A stretch of 64,000 nt of DNA, from positions 64,001 to 128,000 of the forward strand of contig JANPLN010000025.1 of the NCBI GenBank assembly GCA_031426555.1, written 5' to 3'. Within the stretch, counting starts at the first letter, position 1, and every line of letters begins with the position of its first letter. This document shows positions 50,461 to 56,387 of the stretch, piece after piece. Source of the DNA: Bdellovibrionales bacterium (lineage in GTDB: Bacteria; Bdellovibrionota; Bdellovibrionia; Bdellovibrionales; JAGQZY01). Below the pieces are notes generated by a model that saw nothing but the letters and a program-made list of their open reading frames with translations, did not search any database and had not been told where the DNA came from. Both the position numbers and the translations under genes were made by a program.

Positions 50461-51921
50461 CTATGCCACCCTTTTTTCTGGGTGCGGATTGTCTTCATCC
50501 AAAATATAATCACAATCTCTACATTTGAGGATGTATACGCCTTTACTGTTTTTATTCAAAAAAAGTAAGCCGTGACCATTTGGGCAGACGTCTTCGTCGT
50601 CACTATGAAGCTCTGAGTGCCTCTTTAAATTACGGACCTCAAACAGGGTCACCTCTTCGGTTTCGAAACCTTTGAGTACAATTGACTTTATTGGAATGAA
50701 TTCCAGAGTAGCTAGTAAATCAGTCTGCTTATTTTTGATAGCAATAACAGTCTCTTTAGTTAGAACAATACCATTAGAAGGCGCTATGCCGTTTATTCGA
50801 GACGCTAGATTAATTACTCTGCCAATGGCTGTGTAGGATCTCACGTGCAAATCGCTTCCGTAAAATCCAACTGTAGCATTCCCTACCGAAATTCCCACTC
50901 TAACTTCAAAAGCGCCATTCCATAATTCTTCATATATCTTTTTTTTCGAATGTAGTCGATCTAGTACTTCAAAAGCGCAAGATAATGCTCTTTCAATATA
51001 GTCATCTTGTGGAACAGGATTGTTGGTAAAACCCATAACGCCGTCCCCCAGAAACTTATCTACGGTAATATCATACTTCAAAAATAGTCCCATTACGTCT
51101 TCAACATACATCGAAATCACTTTCTGCATTTGAGACGGACTTATCGTTAACAATTTTTTTGTTGAATCTTTAATGTCGATGAAAATTGCGCATATATCGG
51201 ACTGGTAAAGTTCAGCTTTAATGTCCAAACTTCCATCGATAATGCTTTTAATGATTTGCGGGCTAAACTGTTTACTTAAAGTTTTTAGCTTCAGCGCCTC
51301 GGAAGATTTTTTATCGATAATTAAATCTCGGTTCAAAATTTCATTTTCTAATTCAAGACGTAAGACGAATTCGCGATCATTAAGTCTTTCAAAAAAAAGT
51401 CGACCTACGGTGCAAATTGTCGCAACTGAGAGCAAAAAAACTGAGTTTAAAAGAAAGTAAGTAGTACTTAATTCGTTGATCTTGAGTAGTCCAACGCCTA
51501 AAAAAGGAAAAACTATTAGGGCCATACATACAAAGTAATAACTCCACGTGAAGCGCAAGCCAGTTGCAACACCCACCATTATAAGAATTAGGCCAACGTA
51601 GTATGGAGAGTCCGCTGGCAAAATGGCTAGCATAATTTGAATTGGCAGCGCGCAGGAGGCGATGAAGACTACAGCGTACTTCTCAACGCGAGGCAAAGAT
51701 CTCGCAGACTCGGAAATAATTTTATTTAAAACGAAAAATACTGCAATCGAACCAATTCTTAAAAGTAAAAAAGCTCCGAAGTGATCGCGATACCAAACGT
51801 AATCTGCGATTGAGAAAAGTAGATACAAGGGCAACACATACATCGAAGATGCAAAAGATACGAACGTGACAATTACGTCAGCACGTTCCTTATTTTTTCT
51901 CTCAATAGCTTCTGGTGCCAT
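50461..51921 (-). CDS. Membrane-bound class III adenylate cyclase with multi-TM sensor and C-terminal Zn-ribbon-like motif
   Basis: About 6 TM; FIDIKDST, DKFLGDG, YTAIG.VINLASRI (Lys/Thr specificity suggests ATP); CPNGH...CRDC. Confidence 0.88.
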   Translation of the reverse strand: MAPEAIERKNKERADVIVTFVSFASSMYVLPLYLLFSIADYVWYRDHFGAFLLLRIGSIAVFFVLNKIISESARSLPRVEKYAVVFIASCALPIQIMLAILPADSPYYVGLILIMVGVATGLRFTWSYYFVCMALIVFPFLGVGLLKINELSTTYFLLNSVFLLSVATICTVGRLFFERLNDREFVLRLELENEILNRDLIIDKKSSEALKLKTLSKQFSPQIIKSIIDGSLDIKAELYQSDICAIFIDIKDSTKKLLTISPSQMQKVISMYVEDVMGLFLKYDITVDKFLGDGVMGFTNNPVPQDDYIERALSCAFEVLDRLHSKKKIYEELWNGAFEVRVGISVGNATVGFYGSDLHVRSYTAIGRVINLASRINGIAPSNGIVLTKETVIAIKNKQTDLLATLEFIPIKSIVLKGFETEEVTLFEVRNLKRHSELHSDDEDVCPNGHGLLFLNKNSKGVYILKCRDCDYILDEDNPHPEKRVA

Positions 51922-51925
51922 ATAA

Positions 51926-53329
51926 TTAATTCTTTAGTACACAAAATAAATTCACATTATTTGGCTCGGACTCTACTGTGCACTGCGAGCCGTTGATATT
52001 AAAAATTCGCTTTAAATCTTCATGACTTCTTAAAATCAAATACCAATCGAACAATGCCAACATTCCAAACGTATTTGGCGAACTGGTGTTAAAGTTTCCA
52101 ATTACGAGAGAGCCGCCGGGGCTTAGAGACTTGAACAAACTTTTTGCAGCCCTCGTTGCCACTGCGTCCGAAAAATAGTCAAAAAGGCCAGCGGAATAAA
52201 TAAGATCGAAATCTTCATCAATCCCATCGACAATGATTTCTTTAATGTTTTTCTTGCTTAGGTGAATCGTGAGTTTTTTATCAGCCTCGAGCAAGCACTT
52301 TCTAATATTCTGTTGAGCAAACTTCAAAGCGTCTTCATCTTGATCAAGTAGAAAAAACTCAACACGATCCAAGTCTTCTTGATCTAACTTATTGATTACA
52401 TATTTTATTTCCTCAGCTGGCCCACAGGCAACGGACAAAATCGAAACCTTATTTTTTTCGCGAACGGTTGTTATGATTTTTTCGGAAAGAAACTTGACTC
52501 TATTCCTAACAGCCGAAGGCTCTTCATGTAGCTCAACTGCCCGCTCCATACACGAACCAAACAAAGAGTTCGCAAAACTATCTGATTTATAGATGATATT
52601 CATCATCTCAAAATCTCCAGCGTAACCTCGCGGTTTTGAGAAACTTCGCAATGTAAAAGGCGATTGAAAGATAAACTTCCCTAGCCGATACCTATAATAT
52701 TCAAAAACGATCTTGTTGCTCTCAAAGTCGCCATGCAAGACTAAACTATTTAAGACGCTATTATTCGACTTGAGCTTTTTTTCGATTGAACGTCCAACGA
52801 TATCGATAACACACTTTTCTGCTGTCACTTTTTTAGTGGAATTATCGTAGTGACTTACACTCATTTTTTTTACTTGCTCTTCCATTTCGTTAAGCCAAAT
52901 ATAAAGATCATCGATATAATTTTTTACAGAAAAATCAATGCCTCTGTATCTACTGTACCGCTCCTCAACATCTCTAACAATTTTGTGAGAATTAAAAATC
53001 TGAAATACTTCGTCGACTGGAAAAAGAGCGCCAAAAACCTCTGCGCCATAAGCGAAAAGATTTCCTTTTTGTTCTTTTCTTTTTATCTCAAGCGTAAACT
53101 CTTCGACTTTAAAGTCGTCGCCAAAAAATAGCTCCACATCGATTGTACCGCCGAGATCTATATTGTGTTCGGCTTCAAAAGCTAACCCAAAAAGACTGTA
53201 GTTAGTTAAGCTATACCGCCTTCCATCGTGATGAAGGAGCAAATTATCCAAACCAACGGCGTATCTTTCTTGCCTTATCTTGATCTCATGAACTGTACTG
53301 CTGCTGATCTTAGCTTTTTTGTTTTCCAC
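51926..53329 (-). CDS. PhcB-like class I SAM-dependent methyltransferase with N-terminal PilZ-like domain
   Basis: KPRGYAGDFEMM, AVRNR, SVACGPA, LDQD, YSAGLFDY, GNF; GTG start 53329 after an AGGAG RBS. Confidence 0.8.
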   Translation of the reverse strand: MENKKAKISSSTVHEIKIRQERYAVGLDNLLLHHDGRRYSLTNYSLFGLAFEAEHNIDLGGTIDVELFFGDDFKVEEFTLEIKRKEQKGNLFAYGAEVFGALFPVDEVFQIFNSHKIVRDVEERYSRYRGIDFSVKNYIDDLYIWLNEMEEQVKKMSVSHYDNSTKKVTAEKCVIDIVGRSIEKKLKSNNSVLNSLVLHGDFESNKIVFEYYRYRLGKFIFQSPFTLRSFSKPRGYAGDFEMMNIIYKSDSFANSLFGSCMERAVELHEEPSAVRNRVKFLSEKIITTVREKNKVSILSVACGPAEEIKYVINKLDQEDLDRVEFFLLDQDEDALKFAQQNIRKCLLEADKKLTIHLSKKNIKEIIVDGIDEDFDLIYSAGLFDYFSDAVATRAAKSLFKSLSPGGSLVIGNFNTSSPNTFGMLALFDWYLILRSHEDLKRIFNINGSQCTVESEPNNVNLFCVLKN

Positions 53330-53351
53330 AATTACTCCTGGTCTCCTCATA

Positions 53352-53426
53352 ATATCGGCAAGACACCCTGGAAAATTAACGTCCTAGTCTTTAGTCTGAA
53401 AAGTTTATCTAGCAAAAGGACGATAT
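53352..53426. promoter_or_regulatory. Back-to-back sigma28-like promoters
   Basis: Minus strand: TAATTTTC-N11-GCCGATAT (53378-53352). Plus strand: AAAGTTTA-N11-GACGATAT (53400-53426). Confidence 0.5.
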
Positions 53427-53432
53427 GTGTCT

Positions 53433-54254
53433 ATGGAAAAAGCTGCAACATCTGAGTCCATTGAGGAATCCTTTTCTTGGAAGTTTTTTGTGATTATTTC
53501 CGCCATGCATCTGGCTGCACTTGCGGGTATTATCTTTTTCACTACGAAAGGCGCCTTACTCACCTGGGCAGTTAGTCATTTTTTCTTTATTACTATCGGC
53601 GCATCCATTGGCTTGCATAGGTACTTTTCCCATCAGAGCTTTAAGGTTAAAACTATCTACATGGATGCTTTCTTGCACCTTGCCGCGACACTTTGTTTTC
53701 AAGGAGGTCCGATATACTGGGCCACTGCCCACCGATCACACCATAGATACTCTGAAAAATACGGAGACCCTCATAGTGCCAAGAGAGGTTTCCTATGGTC
53801 GCACCTCCTGTGGCTTATGTTCGAACGCCCAAACGGCTTTTCATATTTAAAATCATTAAAGTATAGCCCTGATCTTCGAAAAAATAAACTAACAAACTTT
53901 TTTGAAAAGCATTACCTAAATATAAATTTGTCTTTTTTGCTCATACTTTTAATTGGTTGTACACTTTGCACAAATTTTTCGCTTTTTTTCTTTCTTGGTC
54001 CCGTTAGAATAGTAAGCGTATGGCACTGTACTTGGCTCATAAATAGCTACGCGCATGGAGCGCGGATTTGCACAAGAGATACACAAATCAAGAATTCTAA
54101 TCTTTTATGTATTTTAGTTGGGGGAGACGGCGAGCACAGTTTCCACCATAACTTTCCGAATTCCGCGAAACATTCGAACAAACGATTTTCGCTTGACTAC
54201 GGCTACGCGACGCTGAAGGCCCTCAAAATGTTAGGTTTGATTGAGTTTCGATAA
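53433..54254 (+). CDS. Membrane fatty-acid (delta-9 type) desaturase
   Basis: His boxes HRYFSH, HRSHH, HSFHH; DPHS, INS.AH. Confidence 0.9.
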   Translation: MEKAATSESIEESFSWKFFVIISAMHLAALAGIIFFTTKGALLTWAVSHFFFITIGASIGLHRYFSHQSFKVKTIYMDAFLHLAATLCFQGGPIYWATAHRSHHRYSEKYGDPHSAKRGFLWSHLLWLMFERPNGFSYLKSLKYSPDLRKNKLTNFFEKHYLNINLSFLLILLIGCTLCTNFSLFFFLGPVRIVSVWHCTWLINSYAHGARICTRDTQIKNSNLLCILVGGDGEHSFHHNFPNSAKHSNKRFSLDYGYATLKALKMLGLIEFR

Positions 54255-54267
54255 TTTCTGGATTCGT

Positions 54268-55980
54268 TCAATCTACCAGTTTATTTTTTTTCGGATACGT
54301 CAGACAAATTTCAAATCCGTACCCTTTGTTTCTGTACGTCATCCCACCACCAACTTCGGATAATCGTTTTTTAATCATCCATAACCCAAGACCAGAGCTT
54401 CCACTTGTTATCCCTCGTGCAGATAAATTTTTTAAAATTGTTTCGCTTACTCCCCCCGAGTTATCACTTACAGTTATTTTAAATTCCTCCAATAAGTTCT
54501 CCAGCTCGATGCTTACTTCGGCGTCCACTGAATTTCTCTCGGCAGCTTTAAACGCATTCAACAAAATTTCTGATAACGTGTTTTTAAAATCGTCCGTAAA
54601 ATAATATACATACCCGTCGAAACTATCCGCGACCTTGATTGATATTTTCTTAAAAATACTACCCATTTCCAAACAGACTTCCTCTAAATTGGCCTTAAGG
54701 GTTTTGACTGAATACCAACTTGCATTGGCGTTTGATTTGTCATTAGATAAGTTCTCGAAAATGGTGTCGAACCTTTTTGAAATTAACAGAATACGACTTT
54801 TGTTTATAGTTTCTTCCTGAAGCGAAAAATTTAAACTCGTTATCGGAGCTTTTAAGTCATGAATTATGCTTTTCAAATGTTCGTTGGAGGAATTAATTTT
54901 TTGAAGCAACTTCCTTTCCGACTCTAAGTTACCTTCGATTCTCTTTGTCTTCAAATTTATTTTATAAACGTTTCGAACAACATTTATTATCTCAAAAATC
55001 ATAACTACAATAACAAGCCCAGCTAAGTTTGCATAGCCCTCTCGGTAAGCCTGCCCCCTGTAAACATCGAAAAATGCGATCGTCAGAACAATCAAAAAGT
55101 TTGCACGTACCCCTAGTTTCAGGTTTTTTTTGCAAACAGCGTATAACAAACCGCCAACAATCACAATAAACGCCATAGAAAGCATAAGAAATTGATCGGT
55201 AGCTCTGTGATTTAAAGAAACAACTATGCTAACGGCAAGAAAAATTACATACACGTTTCTAAATTTCTTACTAGATATTATTGGAATTTTATCTAGCATG
55301 TAAAAGTAAGCAATTAAAAACGTGCCAACCATTTGAATTAGGTGTGCATAGCCTATTTCTATGGAGACAAAGTAACCTGGAACGTGAGTAAGCATCAGCA
55401 TGGTTATACCAATACCAAGCCCTAACAATTTAAATTGGCGTACATTCATAACGAATAAAACAATCGTTCCTATAATCGATAAGAACAGACTAATCGTAGC
55501 GGAAAGAATATAGCTTAAATCAAAAAGAAACTGGTCTGGAGGAGATTTACTAACAGCGAAGGGAAATTTATTTAGCGAGATATAGTATTCTAACTGAACT
55601 GTTGACTGGAATGTGACTTTTTTAGAATGCTTTAAAAGATCACAATTAACTAATATCCTATCAAGAACTGACTTTAGGTGCCATGCCTGATCCATTTCGT
55701 TTGAATAAATTCGCGTCGTGTCCACAAAAACTTCCTGCCTACCTTCATAGGTCTGAGGAAAAACTATGTATCTGGCGCGGCCGTCTCGACACACGCTCTG
55801 AATTGTTTGGCTCTCAATGGTCAGGCGGTAGCTACCATCGGTCTGTTTGGCCCATTGCTCCACTACAGACCAATTCGGGTCGGGCTCGTGCGGGATTTGT
55901 TGCACCCCCAATAAATGATAAAACATCATCAACGCACCAAGAGCCCACTGGTCTAATTGAGTTAAAAACACAGACATCAT
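54268..55980 (-). CDS. Membrane sensor histidine kinase (periplasmic domain plus ~7 TM)
   Basis: H-box HDLKAP, N-box LLNAFKA, DNSGG, GLGL; no response regulator nearby. Confidence 0.88.
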   Translation of the reverse strand: MMSVFLTQLDQWALGALMMFYHLLGVQQIPHEPDPNWSVVEQWAKQTDGSYRLTIESQTIQSVCRDGRARYIVFPQTYEGRQEVFVDTTRIYSNEMDQAWHLKSVLDRILVNCDLLKHSKKVTFQSTVQLEYYISLNKFPFAVSKSPPDQFLFDLSYILSATISLFLSIIGTIVLFVMNVRQFKLLGLGIGITMLMLTHVPGYFVSIEIGYAHLIQMVGTFLIAYFYMLDKIPIISSKKFRNVYVIFLAVSIVVSLNHRATDQFLMLSMAFIVIVGGLLYAVCKKNLKLGVRANFLIVLTIAFFDVYRGQAYREGYANLAGLVIVVMIFEIINVVRNVYKINLKTKRIEGNLESERKLLQKINSSNEHLKSIIHDLKAPITSLNFSLQEETINKSRILLISKRFDTIFENLSNDKSNANASWYSVKTLKANLEEVCLEMGSIFKKISIKVADSFDGYVYYFTDDFKNTLSEILLNAFKAAERNSVDAEVSIELENLLEEFKITVSDNSGGVSETILKNLSARGITSGSSGLGLWMIKKRLSEVGGGMTYRNKGYGFEICLTYPKKNKLVD

Positions 55981-55985
55981 TTGGC

Positions 55986-56387
55986 TTACTCGGCGGTGTG
56001 GTCGGCTTTCATTTTTTCAATGTTGGCTTTGCACTCGGAGGAGAGTTCGGCCATTTTGGCTTTCATGCAGTCTTTGATGCGACCTTCACCTGGTTTTACA
56101 CCGGCGCAAAGTTTTTCGCGATCGGCTTTACATGGGCCCGCGTGGTTTTTCATTTGTTCTTTTTTTTCATCGAGCTTTTGCTGGCACTCGGCCGACATTT
56201 TGCTTTTGTTTTCTTCCATACACTGGATCATTTCGGGGCCGCGCTTTTTGCCTTTGCATAGATCCATCATTTGCTTGCGACATTCCTTCATTTCGCCATG
56301 CCCGCCGGCGTGCATTCCTTGGTGATGGTCGGCAAAGGCTGAGATTGAAAATACAAAACTTGCTGCGATAACTATCCATGTTTTCAT
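55986..56387 (-). CDS. Secreted cysteine-rich repeat protein
   Basis: Signal peptide; two C...LC...C...LS.EC repeats. Confidence 0.8.
   Translation of the reverse strand: MKTWIVIAASFVFSISAFADHHQGMHAGGHGEMKECRKQMMDLCKGKKRGPEMIQCMEENKSKMSAECQQKLDEKKEQMKNHAGPCKADREKLCAGVKPGEGRIKDCMKAKMAELSSECKANIEKMKADHTAE

Follow-up and report, generated by a model that had tools for sequence, protein, structure and literature searches.

The window, a stretch of 64,000 nucleotides (nt) from a Bdellovibrionales bacterium (contig JANPLN010000025.1), contains four open reading frames (ORFs) at positions 50461–55980, which encode a class III cyclase, an S-adenosylmethionine (SAM) methyltransferase (MT), a desaturase and a membrane histidine kinase (HK). 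The MT (51926–53350, minus strand) is a protein of 474 amino acids (aa) which belongs to the PhcB family. The adjacent gene (50461–51921, minus strand) encodes a 486-aa sensor-cyclase and starts 4 nt past the stop codon of the MT gene (spacer at 51922–51925). A preliminary description of the locus proposed that these genes form a quorum-sensing circuit, in which a PhcB-like MT makes a fatty-acid methyl ester that is sensed by the neighbouring membrane cyclase. The gene set and order that it gave, the 4-nt spacing, the divergent desaturase and the convergent HK are all found in the ORF list and with Pfam, and the three motifs that it quoted for the MT (KPRGYAGD, SVACGPA and YSAGLFDY) are present in the translation.

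The two proteins of the pair

The MT sequence holds FSKPRGYAGDFEMMN, ILSVACGPAEE and LIYSAGLFDYFSD. Translation may start at a GTG located 7 codons in, which would give a protein of 467 aa, the same length as the homologue of locus L020. Pfam places the MT in class I methyltransferase families (Methyltransf_31/25/12), with 33 bits for Methyltransf_31 (cut-off 27), while NCBIfam returns only sub-threshold matches for all four proteins of the locus. The AlphaFold model of the MT (pLDDT 85.5) is composed of a β-barrel (residues ~30–106), a helical region (112–298) and a Rossmann domain (300–474). The helical region and the Rossmann domain (51929–53017, minus strand) are the part which the MT has in common with PhcB-annotated enzymes. 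The best Foldseek matches of the model are 3ocj (an uncharacterised protein from Bordetella), SgvM, PhzM, DnrK and SibL. Judging from the model, the closest folds are those of small-molecule O- and C-methyltransferases, not of protein methyltransferases.

The N-terminal β-barrel (residues ~26–106; 53033–53275, minus strand; strands 37–106 in the model) is PilZ-like. The Pfam PilZ match is weak in the window MT (14.5 bits, E = 0.045, for a cut-off of 22.5); 2 of 20 members of the MT family are matched (best E = 1.9e-5), a divergent MT paralogue from the congener G004 reaches 36.6 bits (E = 6e-9), and PilZ is present in 10–84% of the members of related Atlas clusters. An alignment of 20 members shows invariant positions along the full length of the MT: R26, R29, S52 and G55 in the N-terminal part, then the blocks KPxGYxGDxEMMN, AVRNR, ACGPxxE, YSAGLFDY and DWxLxxR. 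The PilZ domains that bind cyclic di-GMP (c-di-GMP) carry RxxxR and [D/N]xSxxG motifs. In the N-terminal domain of the MT, NxSxxG is present and invariant, and the arginine pair is spaced RxxR.

A word-indexed protein search returned 1191 homologues of the MT at E ≤0.001 among 7999 scored candidates; most are 460–490 aa long and are aligned across 90–99% of the query. The JGI label [quoted passage not shown], which we take to be the KEGG definition of phcB, is carried by 14 of the 120 listed homologues. Four actinobacterial homologues (L068, L083, L093 and L098) are short forms, which match the MT only from residue ~184 or 213 to residue 473. They have no partner with six transmembrane (TM) helices, and their neighbours are ABC transporter or TetR genes.

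A hydropathy scan places about six TM helices in residues 14–175 of the cyclase. This six-helix (6TM) domain (residues ~14–175; 51397–51882, minus strand), assigned to the PhcS type by hydropathy, profile comparison and modelling, has very short loops and appears to be almost wholly intramembrane, according to hydropathy and the model. The model of the domain (pLDDT 93.7) has six helices, the last of which, TM6, runs on as a single helix (153–214). Modelling and conservation define the next segment (residues 176–235; 51217–51396, minus strand), which comprises the continuation of this long helix and the conserved SKQFSPQ segment, and is the junction of the output swaps described below. The class III catalytic domain follows (residues 236–432; 50626–51216, minus strand), as delimited by Pfam and the alignment with CyaB. 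The protein ends with a zinc-ribbon-like motif made of the invariant cysteines C446, C467 and C470 (50512–50586, minus strand), and Pfam finds Zn_ribbon_RPB9 in the cyclase homologues of loci L052 and L099.

No Pfam family was found for the TM domain. MASE8 (PF20968) matches none of 14 cyclase- or kinase-linked TM domains, and it is below threshold in two of the six PhcS-annotated TM domains (22.6 and 24.2 bits for 26.2). The search of 48,161 structure chains with the TM model gave ImcA (Z = 14.8), bovine AC9 (Z = 14.6) and human AC5 (Z = 13.7); the next-best Z is 9.5, and Mycobacterium tuberculosis Cya has a Z of 7.6. Foldseek returned nothing at E ≤0.001 for the same model, its best match being ImcA (E = 0.085, TM-score 0.62). 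ImcA is also the only PDB sequence touched by the TM profile, at an E value (0.29) which is not significant. Helical bundles can reach Z values of ~13–14 from their arrangement alone. The match therefore indicates an architecture like that of membrane cyclases, common descent not being proven.

The Pfam family Guanylate_cyc matches the cyclase with 50.1 bits (cut-off 21.9), and the closest solved catalytic domain is that of the class IIIb adenylate cyclase CyaB from Pseudomonas aeruginosa (3r5g, E = 3.7e-17). The roles of the catalytic residues of class III enzymes are established in the literature, and D249, K289, D293, T364, N371 and R375 align with the metal-binding, substrate and transition-state residues of CyaB. 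Across 20–60 family members, these positions show little or no variation, and the same holds for SKQFSPQ and the three C-terminal cysteines. On the basis of its sequence, the cyclase retains the full catalytic set of a class IIIb-like enzyme, for which ATP is the predicted substrate: K289 and T364 are as in adenylate cyclases of this class, CyaB among them. The genome encodes one other class III cyclase, and it also encodes five cyclic nucleotide monophosphate (cNMP)-binding domains in four proteins, so that a cyclic-nucleotide output has readers. The prediction of a complex between the MT and the cyclase, run without controls, gave a median score of 0.26 for a mark of 0.32, and is used neither way.

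Conservation of the pair and its relation to Phc signalling

The MT is matched in 10 of 41 related genomes (that of the window included), with 9 of 24 within the family and none of 16 in the other families of the order. This patchy distribution indicates that the MT gene is accessory. Neither the MT nor the cyclase TM domain recurs elsewhere in the window's genome. In all nine relatives which have the MT, a cyclase homologue directly follows it, down to 27% MT identity.

A wider survey was made on public contigs, with one genome per species, and concerns the best 80 of 475 MT relatives, which are the set closest to the window MT. The four actinobacterial short forms and one locus at a contig edge were set aside, which leaves 75 assessable loci. 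In 73 of them, the 6TM domain is found again in the product of the gene that follows on the MT strand. The output of these 73 partners is a cyclase in 63 cases and a histidine kinase in 6 cases, and the 4 others consist of the TM part only. The cyclase calls come from the family hidden Markov model (HMM) for 62 proteins and from Pfam for that of L049; Pfam alone detects Guanylate_cyc in 59 of 76 downstream proteins. The two exceptions are L060, which is without partner, and L095, where a cyclase homologue is found ~1.1 kb upstream on the opposite strand. The loci carry the labels of at least five phyla (Bdellovibrionota, Acidobacteriota, Pseudomonadota, Myxococcota and Thermodesulfobacteriota). 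Since many rows are kin, these counts are not independent. The MT–cyclase pairing is far beyond chance, and the gene pair from which the circuit had been proposed is thus conserved, both in the nine relatives and in the public loci.

Two of the four TM-only partners are truncated by contig ends, and the two others are complete ORFs of 204 aa. The complete ones (L067, 5425–6039, and L091, 7410–8024) belong to sister Bdellovibrio loci and have no output domain. The module is duplicated in tandem in a few loci, as MT–cyclase–cyclase in L056 and L076 and as MT–cyclase–MT–cyclase in L092. Three metagenome-assembled genomes labelled Bacillota (L080), Saccharimonadales (L043) and Rickettsiales (L023) contain MTs which are near-identical to those of Bdellovibrio, of acidobacteria and of Pseudobdellovibrio, respectively; with tree distances of 0.03–0.13, these are probably mis-binned contigs rather than cases of transfer. 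Nine loci are of the Bdellovibrio bacteriovorus type (L061, L063, L069, L070, L074, L075, L077, L087 and L097). In eight of these nine, the MT is immediately preceded, on the other strand, by the gene for a protein of 510–530 aa with a Peptidase_C92 (YaeF/YiiX permuted papain-like amidase) domain, and a LysR regulator is often found downstream.

The kinases that replace the cyclase at some loci have the same membrane domain. Residues 7–210 of the window cyclase match the N-terminal 200–225 residues of five MT-linked kinases with 25–30% identity (E from 1e-11 to 1e-17). When 60 cyclase TM domains are aligned to these five kinases with hhalign, the probability (Prob) is 100 and the E value 1.7e-72. 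A sixth MT-linked kinase, which contains a PAS domain, is matched by the TM-domain HMM (E = 2.8e-13). The acidobacterial kinase of L034 falls, in the TM-domain tree, within a starred clade of six acidobacterial cyclases. It is 74% identical to the cyclase of L041 over 195 residues, in the TM part only, and the similarity ends abruptly once the helix extending from TM6 is passed, right ahead of the SKQFSPQ of the cyclase. The restriction of this identity to the TM part shows that output domains have recently been exchanged while the membrane domain stayed the same. To account for the kinase partners, the MT tree requires three or more changes within the family paired with cyclases. Across phyla, the constant partner of the MT is the 6TM domain, not the output domain.

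The TM profile was also compared with 1.84 billion representative proteins; it matches 2681 of them at E ≤0.001, and 1137 at E ≤1e-10. The best 150 of these 2681 representatives comprise 76 cyclases, 50 kinases, one protein that is both and 23 short fragments. Some representatives have an unusual composition: P0172 (879 aa) carries a kinase and a cyclase, and P0143 (794 aa) and P0179 (1246 aa) have ~345 residues ahead of the TM domain which are unmatched by the three HMMs used.

In the Phc system, PhcB is described as making 3-hydroxymyristic acid methyl ester (3-OH MAME) or 3-hydroxypalmitic acid methyl ester (3-OH PAME), and PhcS as sensing the product (PMC7694676). The phcBSRQ genes are described in the same source as encoding, among others, the methyltransferase PhcB, the sensor kinase PhcS and the kinase/regulator hybrid PhcR. 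A four-gene operon of this type (MT, 441-aa 6TM kinase, receiver–kinase hybrid, receiver) was found in one high-GC genome; this first operon comes from a 401-genome sample of the class which holds one gammaproteobacterial locus, with 8 matches in the sample. Sampling at family level added six more, so that 7 of the 151 genomes sampled carry such an operon, and their MTs are 57–63% identical. The cluster mates of their proteins are from Polaromonas, Rhodoferax and Variovorax, with JGI labels of PhcB-type biosynthesis protein and "sensor histidine kinase PhcS". A protein search started from this Burkholderiales reference clade gave only Polaromonas-, Rhodoferax- and Hydrogenophaga-like proteins among the matches listed, at an identity of at least 67%. 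No Ralstonia MT is among the kept best 80 of 475 public relatives, and a tblastn search of plasmids for PhcB and PhcS gave only short C-terminal homologues, mostly from Rhizobium. The upstream flank was read for one operon only (L109); it holds htpG, and not the regulator that is reported upstream of phcB in Ralstonia (PMC10788593).

Both proteins of the pair are related to these PhcB- and PhcS-annotated proteins. The comparison of 70 MT family members with six PhcB-annotated Burkholderiales MTs by hhalign gives a Prob of 100 (E = 3.7e-52, 354 columns). The homology spans the helical and catalytic parts, and BLASTP aligns the window MT to a PhcB-annotated MT with 26% identity (E = 4e-30), motifs other than those of SAM binding being in common. 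The profile of the cyclase TM domain matches that of the six PhcS-annotated kinase TM domains with a Prob of 99.0 (E = 5.8e-18, 180 columns), and the pairwise BLASTP alignment shows 29% identity (E = 7e-4). The controls made with this profile gave a Prob of 0.3 for the TM region of the window HK and 1.7 for the desaturase. These profile matches indicate that the MT and the TM domain are homologous to Phc components. The MT had been recognised as PhcB-like from its motifs and size; at the level of the family this is borne out by the JGI labels and by the hhalign match. The comparison of the cyclase TM domain with the sensors found next to other phcB-like genes likewise reveals homology.

The low-GC slot and the neighbouring genes

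The GC content is 0.35–0.40 across 50.5–55.5 kb, compared to 0.45–0.50 in both flanks, which makes the locus a low-GC island. It is bordered by pdxJ on one side and by sufE and a gene for a small Cys-rich protein on the other. The latter (55986–56387, minus strand), at the island edge, encodes a genus-conserved, Cys/Lys-rich protein of 133 aa with an apparent signal peptide, for which the only match is a sub-threshold one to Cys_rich_FGFR. No receiver gene and no PhcR or PhcQ gene is present in the island, according to the ORF list and Pfam. The MT and desaturase genes diverge from an intergenic spacer of 76 nt between their starts (53351–53426). A consensus scan for promoters and terminators gave nothing above chance for this spacer, the result being below the expectation from shuffled sequences.

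The same slot between the Cys-rich gene and pdxJ has other contents in congeners. In G004 (L017, G004:C123, 7968–10777), it is occupied by a very divergent pair, 27% identical, of a PilZ-MT and a 6TM cyclase, with a GC content of 0.34–0.38. In G005 (L121, G005:C64, 5434–11567), it contains a PEMT/ICMT-like methyltransferase, an iron redox enzyme (Haem_oxygenas_2), a GAF-cyclase, a PilZ-FeeM protein and a kinase, with a GC content of 0.31–0.39; the PilZ-FeeM protein is of the N-acyl amino acid synthase type. Thus, alternative modules made of a lipid enzyme and a cyclase replace one another at one chromosomal site. In another genus, a single protein of 1158 aa with a PilZ-FeeM-GAF-class III cyclase arrangement is encoded directly after an MT homologue (L019, 3785–7261, plus strand). 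By its domain composition, this protein is a lipid-signal synthase fused to a cyclase. The sets of G004, G005 and L019 make the association of a PilZ-tagged lipid enzyme with a cyclase a recurring theme.

The desaturase (53427–54254, plus strand, 275 aa) is divergent from the MT. It matches the Pfam family FA_desaturase (58.5 bits, cut-off 29.7) and the solved structure of SCD1 (4zyo, E = 8.1e-36), with the histidine boxes HRxxSH, HRxHH and HxxHH aligned, so that it is SCD1-like and, by similarity, presumably of the delta-9 type. The genome has four FA_desaturase genes, including this one. The desaturase family is the commonest neighbour of the MT–cyclase pair: in 18 of 77 loci a member lies at most four genes from the MT, and 10 of these loci have it directly upstream. 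The desaturase-linked loci belong to two separate MT clades, both in Bdellovibrionota. This supports a connection with lipids, yet the desaturase is not core to the module.

The HK (54268–55980, minus strand, 570 aa) is an orphan membrane kinase which matches HATPase_c in Pfam (43.3 bits, cut-off 26.4). Its gene converges on the desaturase gene, the two stop codons being 13 nt apart. Of the nine relatives, the two closest congeners (L011 and L012) alone have it beside the pair, and hhalign finds no relation between its TM region and the TM domain of the cyclase (Prob 0.3). A kinase which is 28% identical to it borders the different module of G005. Being limited to the genus, the HK is a passenger of the island, outside the conserved module.

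Interpretation and comparison with known systems

Taken together, the data make it somewhat probable that the pair is a Phc-type cassette, in which the MT makes a hydrophobic methylated signal and the 6TM domain encoded by the next gene senses it and drives an adenylate cyclase. The MT would methylate the carboxyl group of a fatty acid, as reported for PhcB, and thus produce a hydrophobic methyl ester, predicted to be a fatty-acid methyl ester. In the lineage of the window, the adjacent delta-9-type desaturase would supply an unsaturated precursor. The product of the MT would then bind the 6TM domain of the cyclase, and the TM6 helix, together with the SKQFSPQ segment, would relay the signal to the presumably homodimeric catalytic part, whose output would be cyclic AMP (cAMP). 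The PilZ-like N-terminal domain, in which RxxR and NxSxxG are invariant across the MT family, may put the synthesis under the control of a nucleotide or of a partner protein. The proposal that the adjacent membrane protein is a candidate receptor, with cAMP in place of phosphorylation, is supported by the homology of the TM domains (Prob 99.0) and by the natural output swaps.

Several observations weigh against this scheme. In the MT tree (87 rows, IQ-TREE quick), the six phcBSRQ-type MTs form a single clade (100*, branch 3.19), to which the window MT does not belong; its place is deep among the MTs paired with cyclases. In the strict sense, this is one of the outcomes that the preliminary description had named as refuting its proposal. 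By its sequence, the cassette is a separate and much larger branch, so that the identity of the substrate is not safely transferable. The Phc reference clade itself is made of Comamonadaceae-like Burkholderiales proteins annotated by KEGG orthology, not of the experimentally studied Ralstonia proteins. The N-terminus of the MT does not match that of the PhcB-annotated enzymes when they are compared with hhalign (118 and 105 residues, Prob 0.1). The desaturase is absent from 59 of the 77 loci. The first metal-binding Asp of the window cyclase is followed by D-S-T, where most class III enzymes have G-F-T. The TM-only partners of L067 and L091 fit a role of the TM domain other than that of a receptor, or gene decay. 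Finally, the signal may act between cells or only on its producer. On the whole, the preliminary description holds for the PhcB family, the conserved pairing and the PhcS-type sensor, but not for clade membership, the N-terminal domain or the inclusion of the HK in the module.

A broader form of the scheme can be put forward tentatively, as a possibility with the odds somewhat against it. The locus would encode a natural, linked ligand–receptor pair, in which a self-made fatty-acid methyl ester binds a 6TM domain with the membrane fold of mammalian adenylate cyclases and switches cAMP production. The same sensor, with a cyclase or a kinase output, would define a large, unrecognised family of lipid autoinducer systems (2681 sensor clusters), and the synthase–cyclase sets would swap at one slot in the manner of pherotypes.

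A first alternative, which we consider unlikely, is that the system senses the status of membrane lipids: lipids of the producing cell, or a lipid intermediate, would be the substrates of the MT and the desaturase, and the 6TM domain would report membrane composition or pathway flux to cAMP, with no diffusible signal and no role between cells. This would agree with the usual link between SCD1-type desaturases and membrane fluidity, with a sensor domain that has very short loops and lies almost wholly in the membrane, and with the TM-only partners of L067 and L091 and the lack of any sign of secretion. However, both components are homologous to those of a system with a reported diffusible ester ligand (PMC7694676). 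The cassette is also accessory and patchy (10 of 41 genomes) and sits in a replaceable low-GC slot, unlike a housekeeping homeostat, and the genome has three other desaturases.

The MT could also be a protein methyltransferase which acts on the adjacent receptor, in a CheR-like adaptation of the membrane cyclase or kinase. It strictly adjoins a receptor-like protein, and its best PDB sequence match is CheR (5ftw, E = 2.6e-5). In Pfam, the CheR matches are weak (24 bits for the window MT, below the cut-off of 27; E ≤0.1 for 17 of the 20 members of the family). This role is nevertheless quite improbable, considering that the top folds are small-molecule O- and C-methyltransferases (3ocj, SgvM, PhzM, DnrK, SibL), that the MT matches, with a Prob of 100, the PhcB-annotated family, which has a reported signal synthase as its type member, and that no CheB-like demethylase is encoded at the locus.

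Least probable of all is the reversed order, in which the product of the cyclase binds the PilZ-like domain of the MT and switches on a methylated lipid as an end product, not a ligand: R26, R29, S52 and G55 are invariant in this domain, and PilZ-synthases and cyclases co-occur in other forms (the PilZ-FeeM protein beside the GAF-cyclase of G005, the 1158-aa fusion of L019), but full-length MTs paired with kinases (L050, L082, L089 and L034) keep the same N-terminal domain, which is therefore independent of the cyclase product, the TM domain and not the cyclase is what is conserved beside the MT, and the arginine spacing is RxxR, not the RxxxR of the PilZ domains that bind c-di-GMP.

A full-text literature search, made in a library with limited coverage of subscription journals, gave no account of a pairing between a PhcB-like MT and a sensor-cyclase of the PhcS type. 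The passages on cyclase membrane domains in two papers describe only engineered sensor–cyclase chimeras and orphan membrane domains (PMC4821796, PMC12414865). The idea that the 6TM anchors of cyclases are receptors accompanies the engineered CqsS-Rv1625c chimera (Beltz et al. 2016, PMC4821796; reviewed in PMC12414865). This fusion of a quorum sensor with a bacterial cyclase is the main proof of principle (PMC4821796), and the review of 2025 calls the 6TM domains of adenylate cyclases a "signal transduction blind spot" (PMC12414865). The role of these six-helix domains is thus an acknowledged open question, and the same design is natural and frequent here. As the candidate ligand synthase is encoded next door, the discovery of the ligand is a direct experiment. 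The natural cyclase and kinase twins, whose sensors are 74% identical, offer a test of one membrane domain driving two outputs. In Bdellovibrio, cAMP receptors are described while the cyclases are uncharacterised (PMC6717892): the paper on the cAMP-sensing Bd1971 mentions four annotated cyclase genes of B. bacteriovorus HD100 (bd0081, bd1116, bd2640 and bd3072) as unstudied. If the Phc-type cassette is confirmed, it would name an input to cAMP signalling in predatory bacteria, extend Phc-type signalling far beyond plant-pathogenic Burkholderiales, and provide a natural ligand–receptor pair for a membrane cyclase.

Among known proteins, CyaB (3r5g) has the metal-binding Asp residues, the Lys, the Thr at the adenine-specifying position, the Asn and the Arg aligned with those of the window cyclase; it differs by its membrane domain, by the absence of an adjacent methyltransferase and by the lack of a C-terminal zinc ribbon. 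The membrane diguanylate cyclase ImcA from P. aeruginosa (8wcn) is structurally closest to the TM domain (Z = 14.8 over 213 residues), but its output domain is GGDEF. To our knowledge, ImcA has no link with a methyltransferase. Mammalian AC9 and AC5 and M. tuberculosis Cya (Rv1625c) share with the window protein the six TM helices, the long helix and a class III catalytic domain. With AC9 (6r3q), the alignment of the TM model covers 204 of 215 residues (Z = 14.6, root-mean-square deviation 3.0); with AC5 (8sl3), Z is 13.7. However, the sequence identity with AC9 and AC5 is 8–9%, and the catalytic domain of the window protein is closest to that of class IIIb CyaB and presumably homodimeric.

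Like the Phc system, the locus has a gene for a SAM methyltransferase which is directly followed by that of a multi-helix membrane sensor, with the helical and catalytic parts of the MT and the TM domain of the sensor homologous to PhcB- and PhcS-annotated Burkholderiales proteins. It differs from it in that a class III cyclase takes the place of HisKA-HATPase as the output, that PhcR and PhcQ genes are absent, and that the MT is in a separate clade and has a PilZ-like N-terminal domain which is not detectably related to the N-terminus of the PhcB type. The CqsS-Rv1625c chimera also joins a six-helix quorum-sensor domain to a class III cyclase, and in that protein a lipophilic autoinducer is described as gating cAMP production (PMC4821796). 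The chimera is man-made, whereas the fusion is natural here and common (63 of 75 loci), with a candidate synthase of its ligand encoded beside it.

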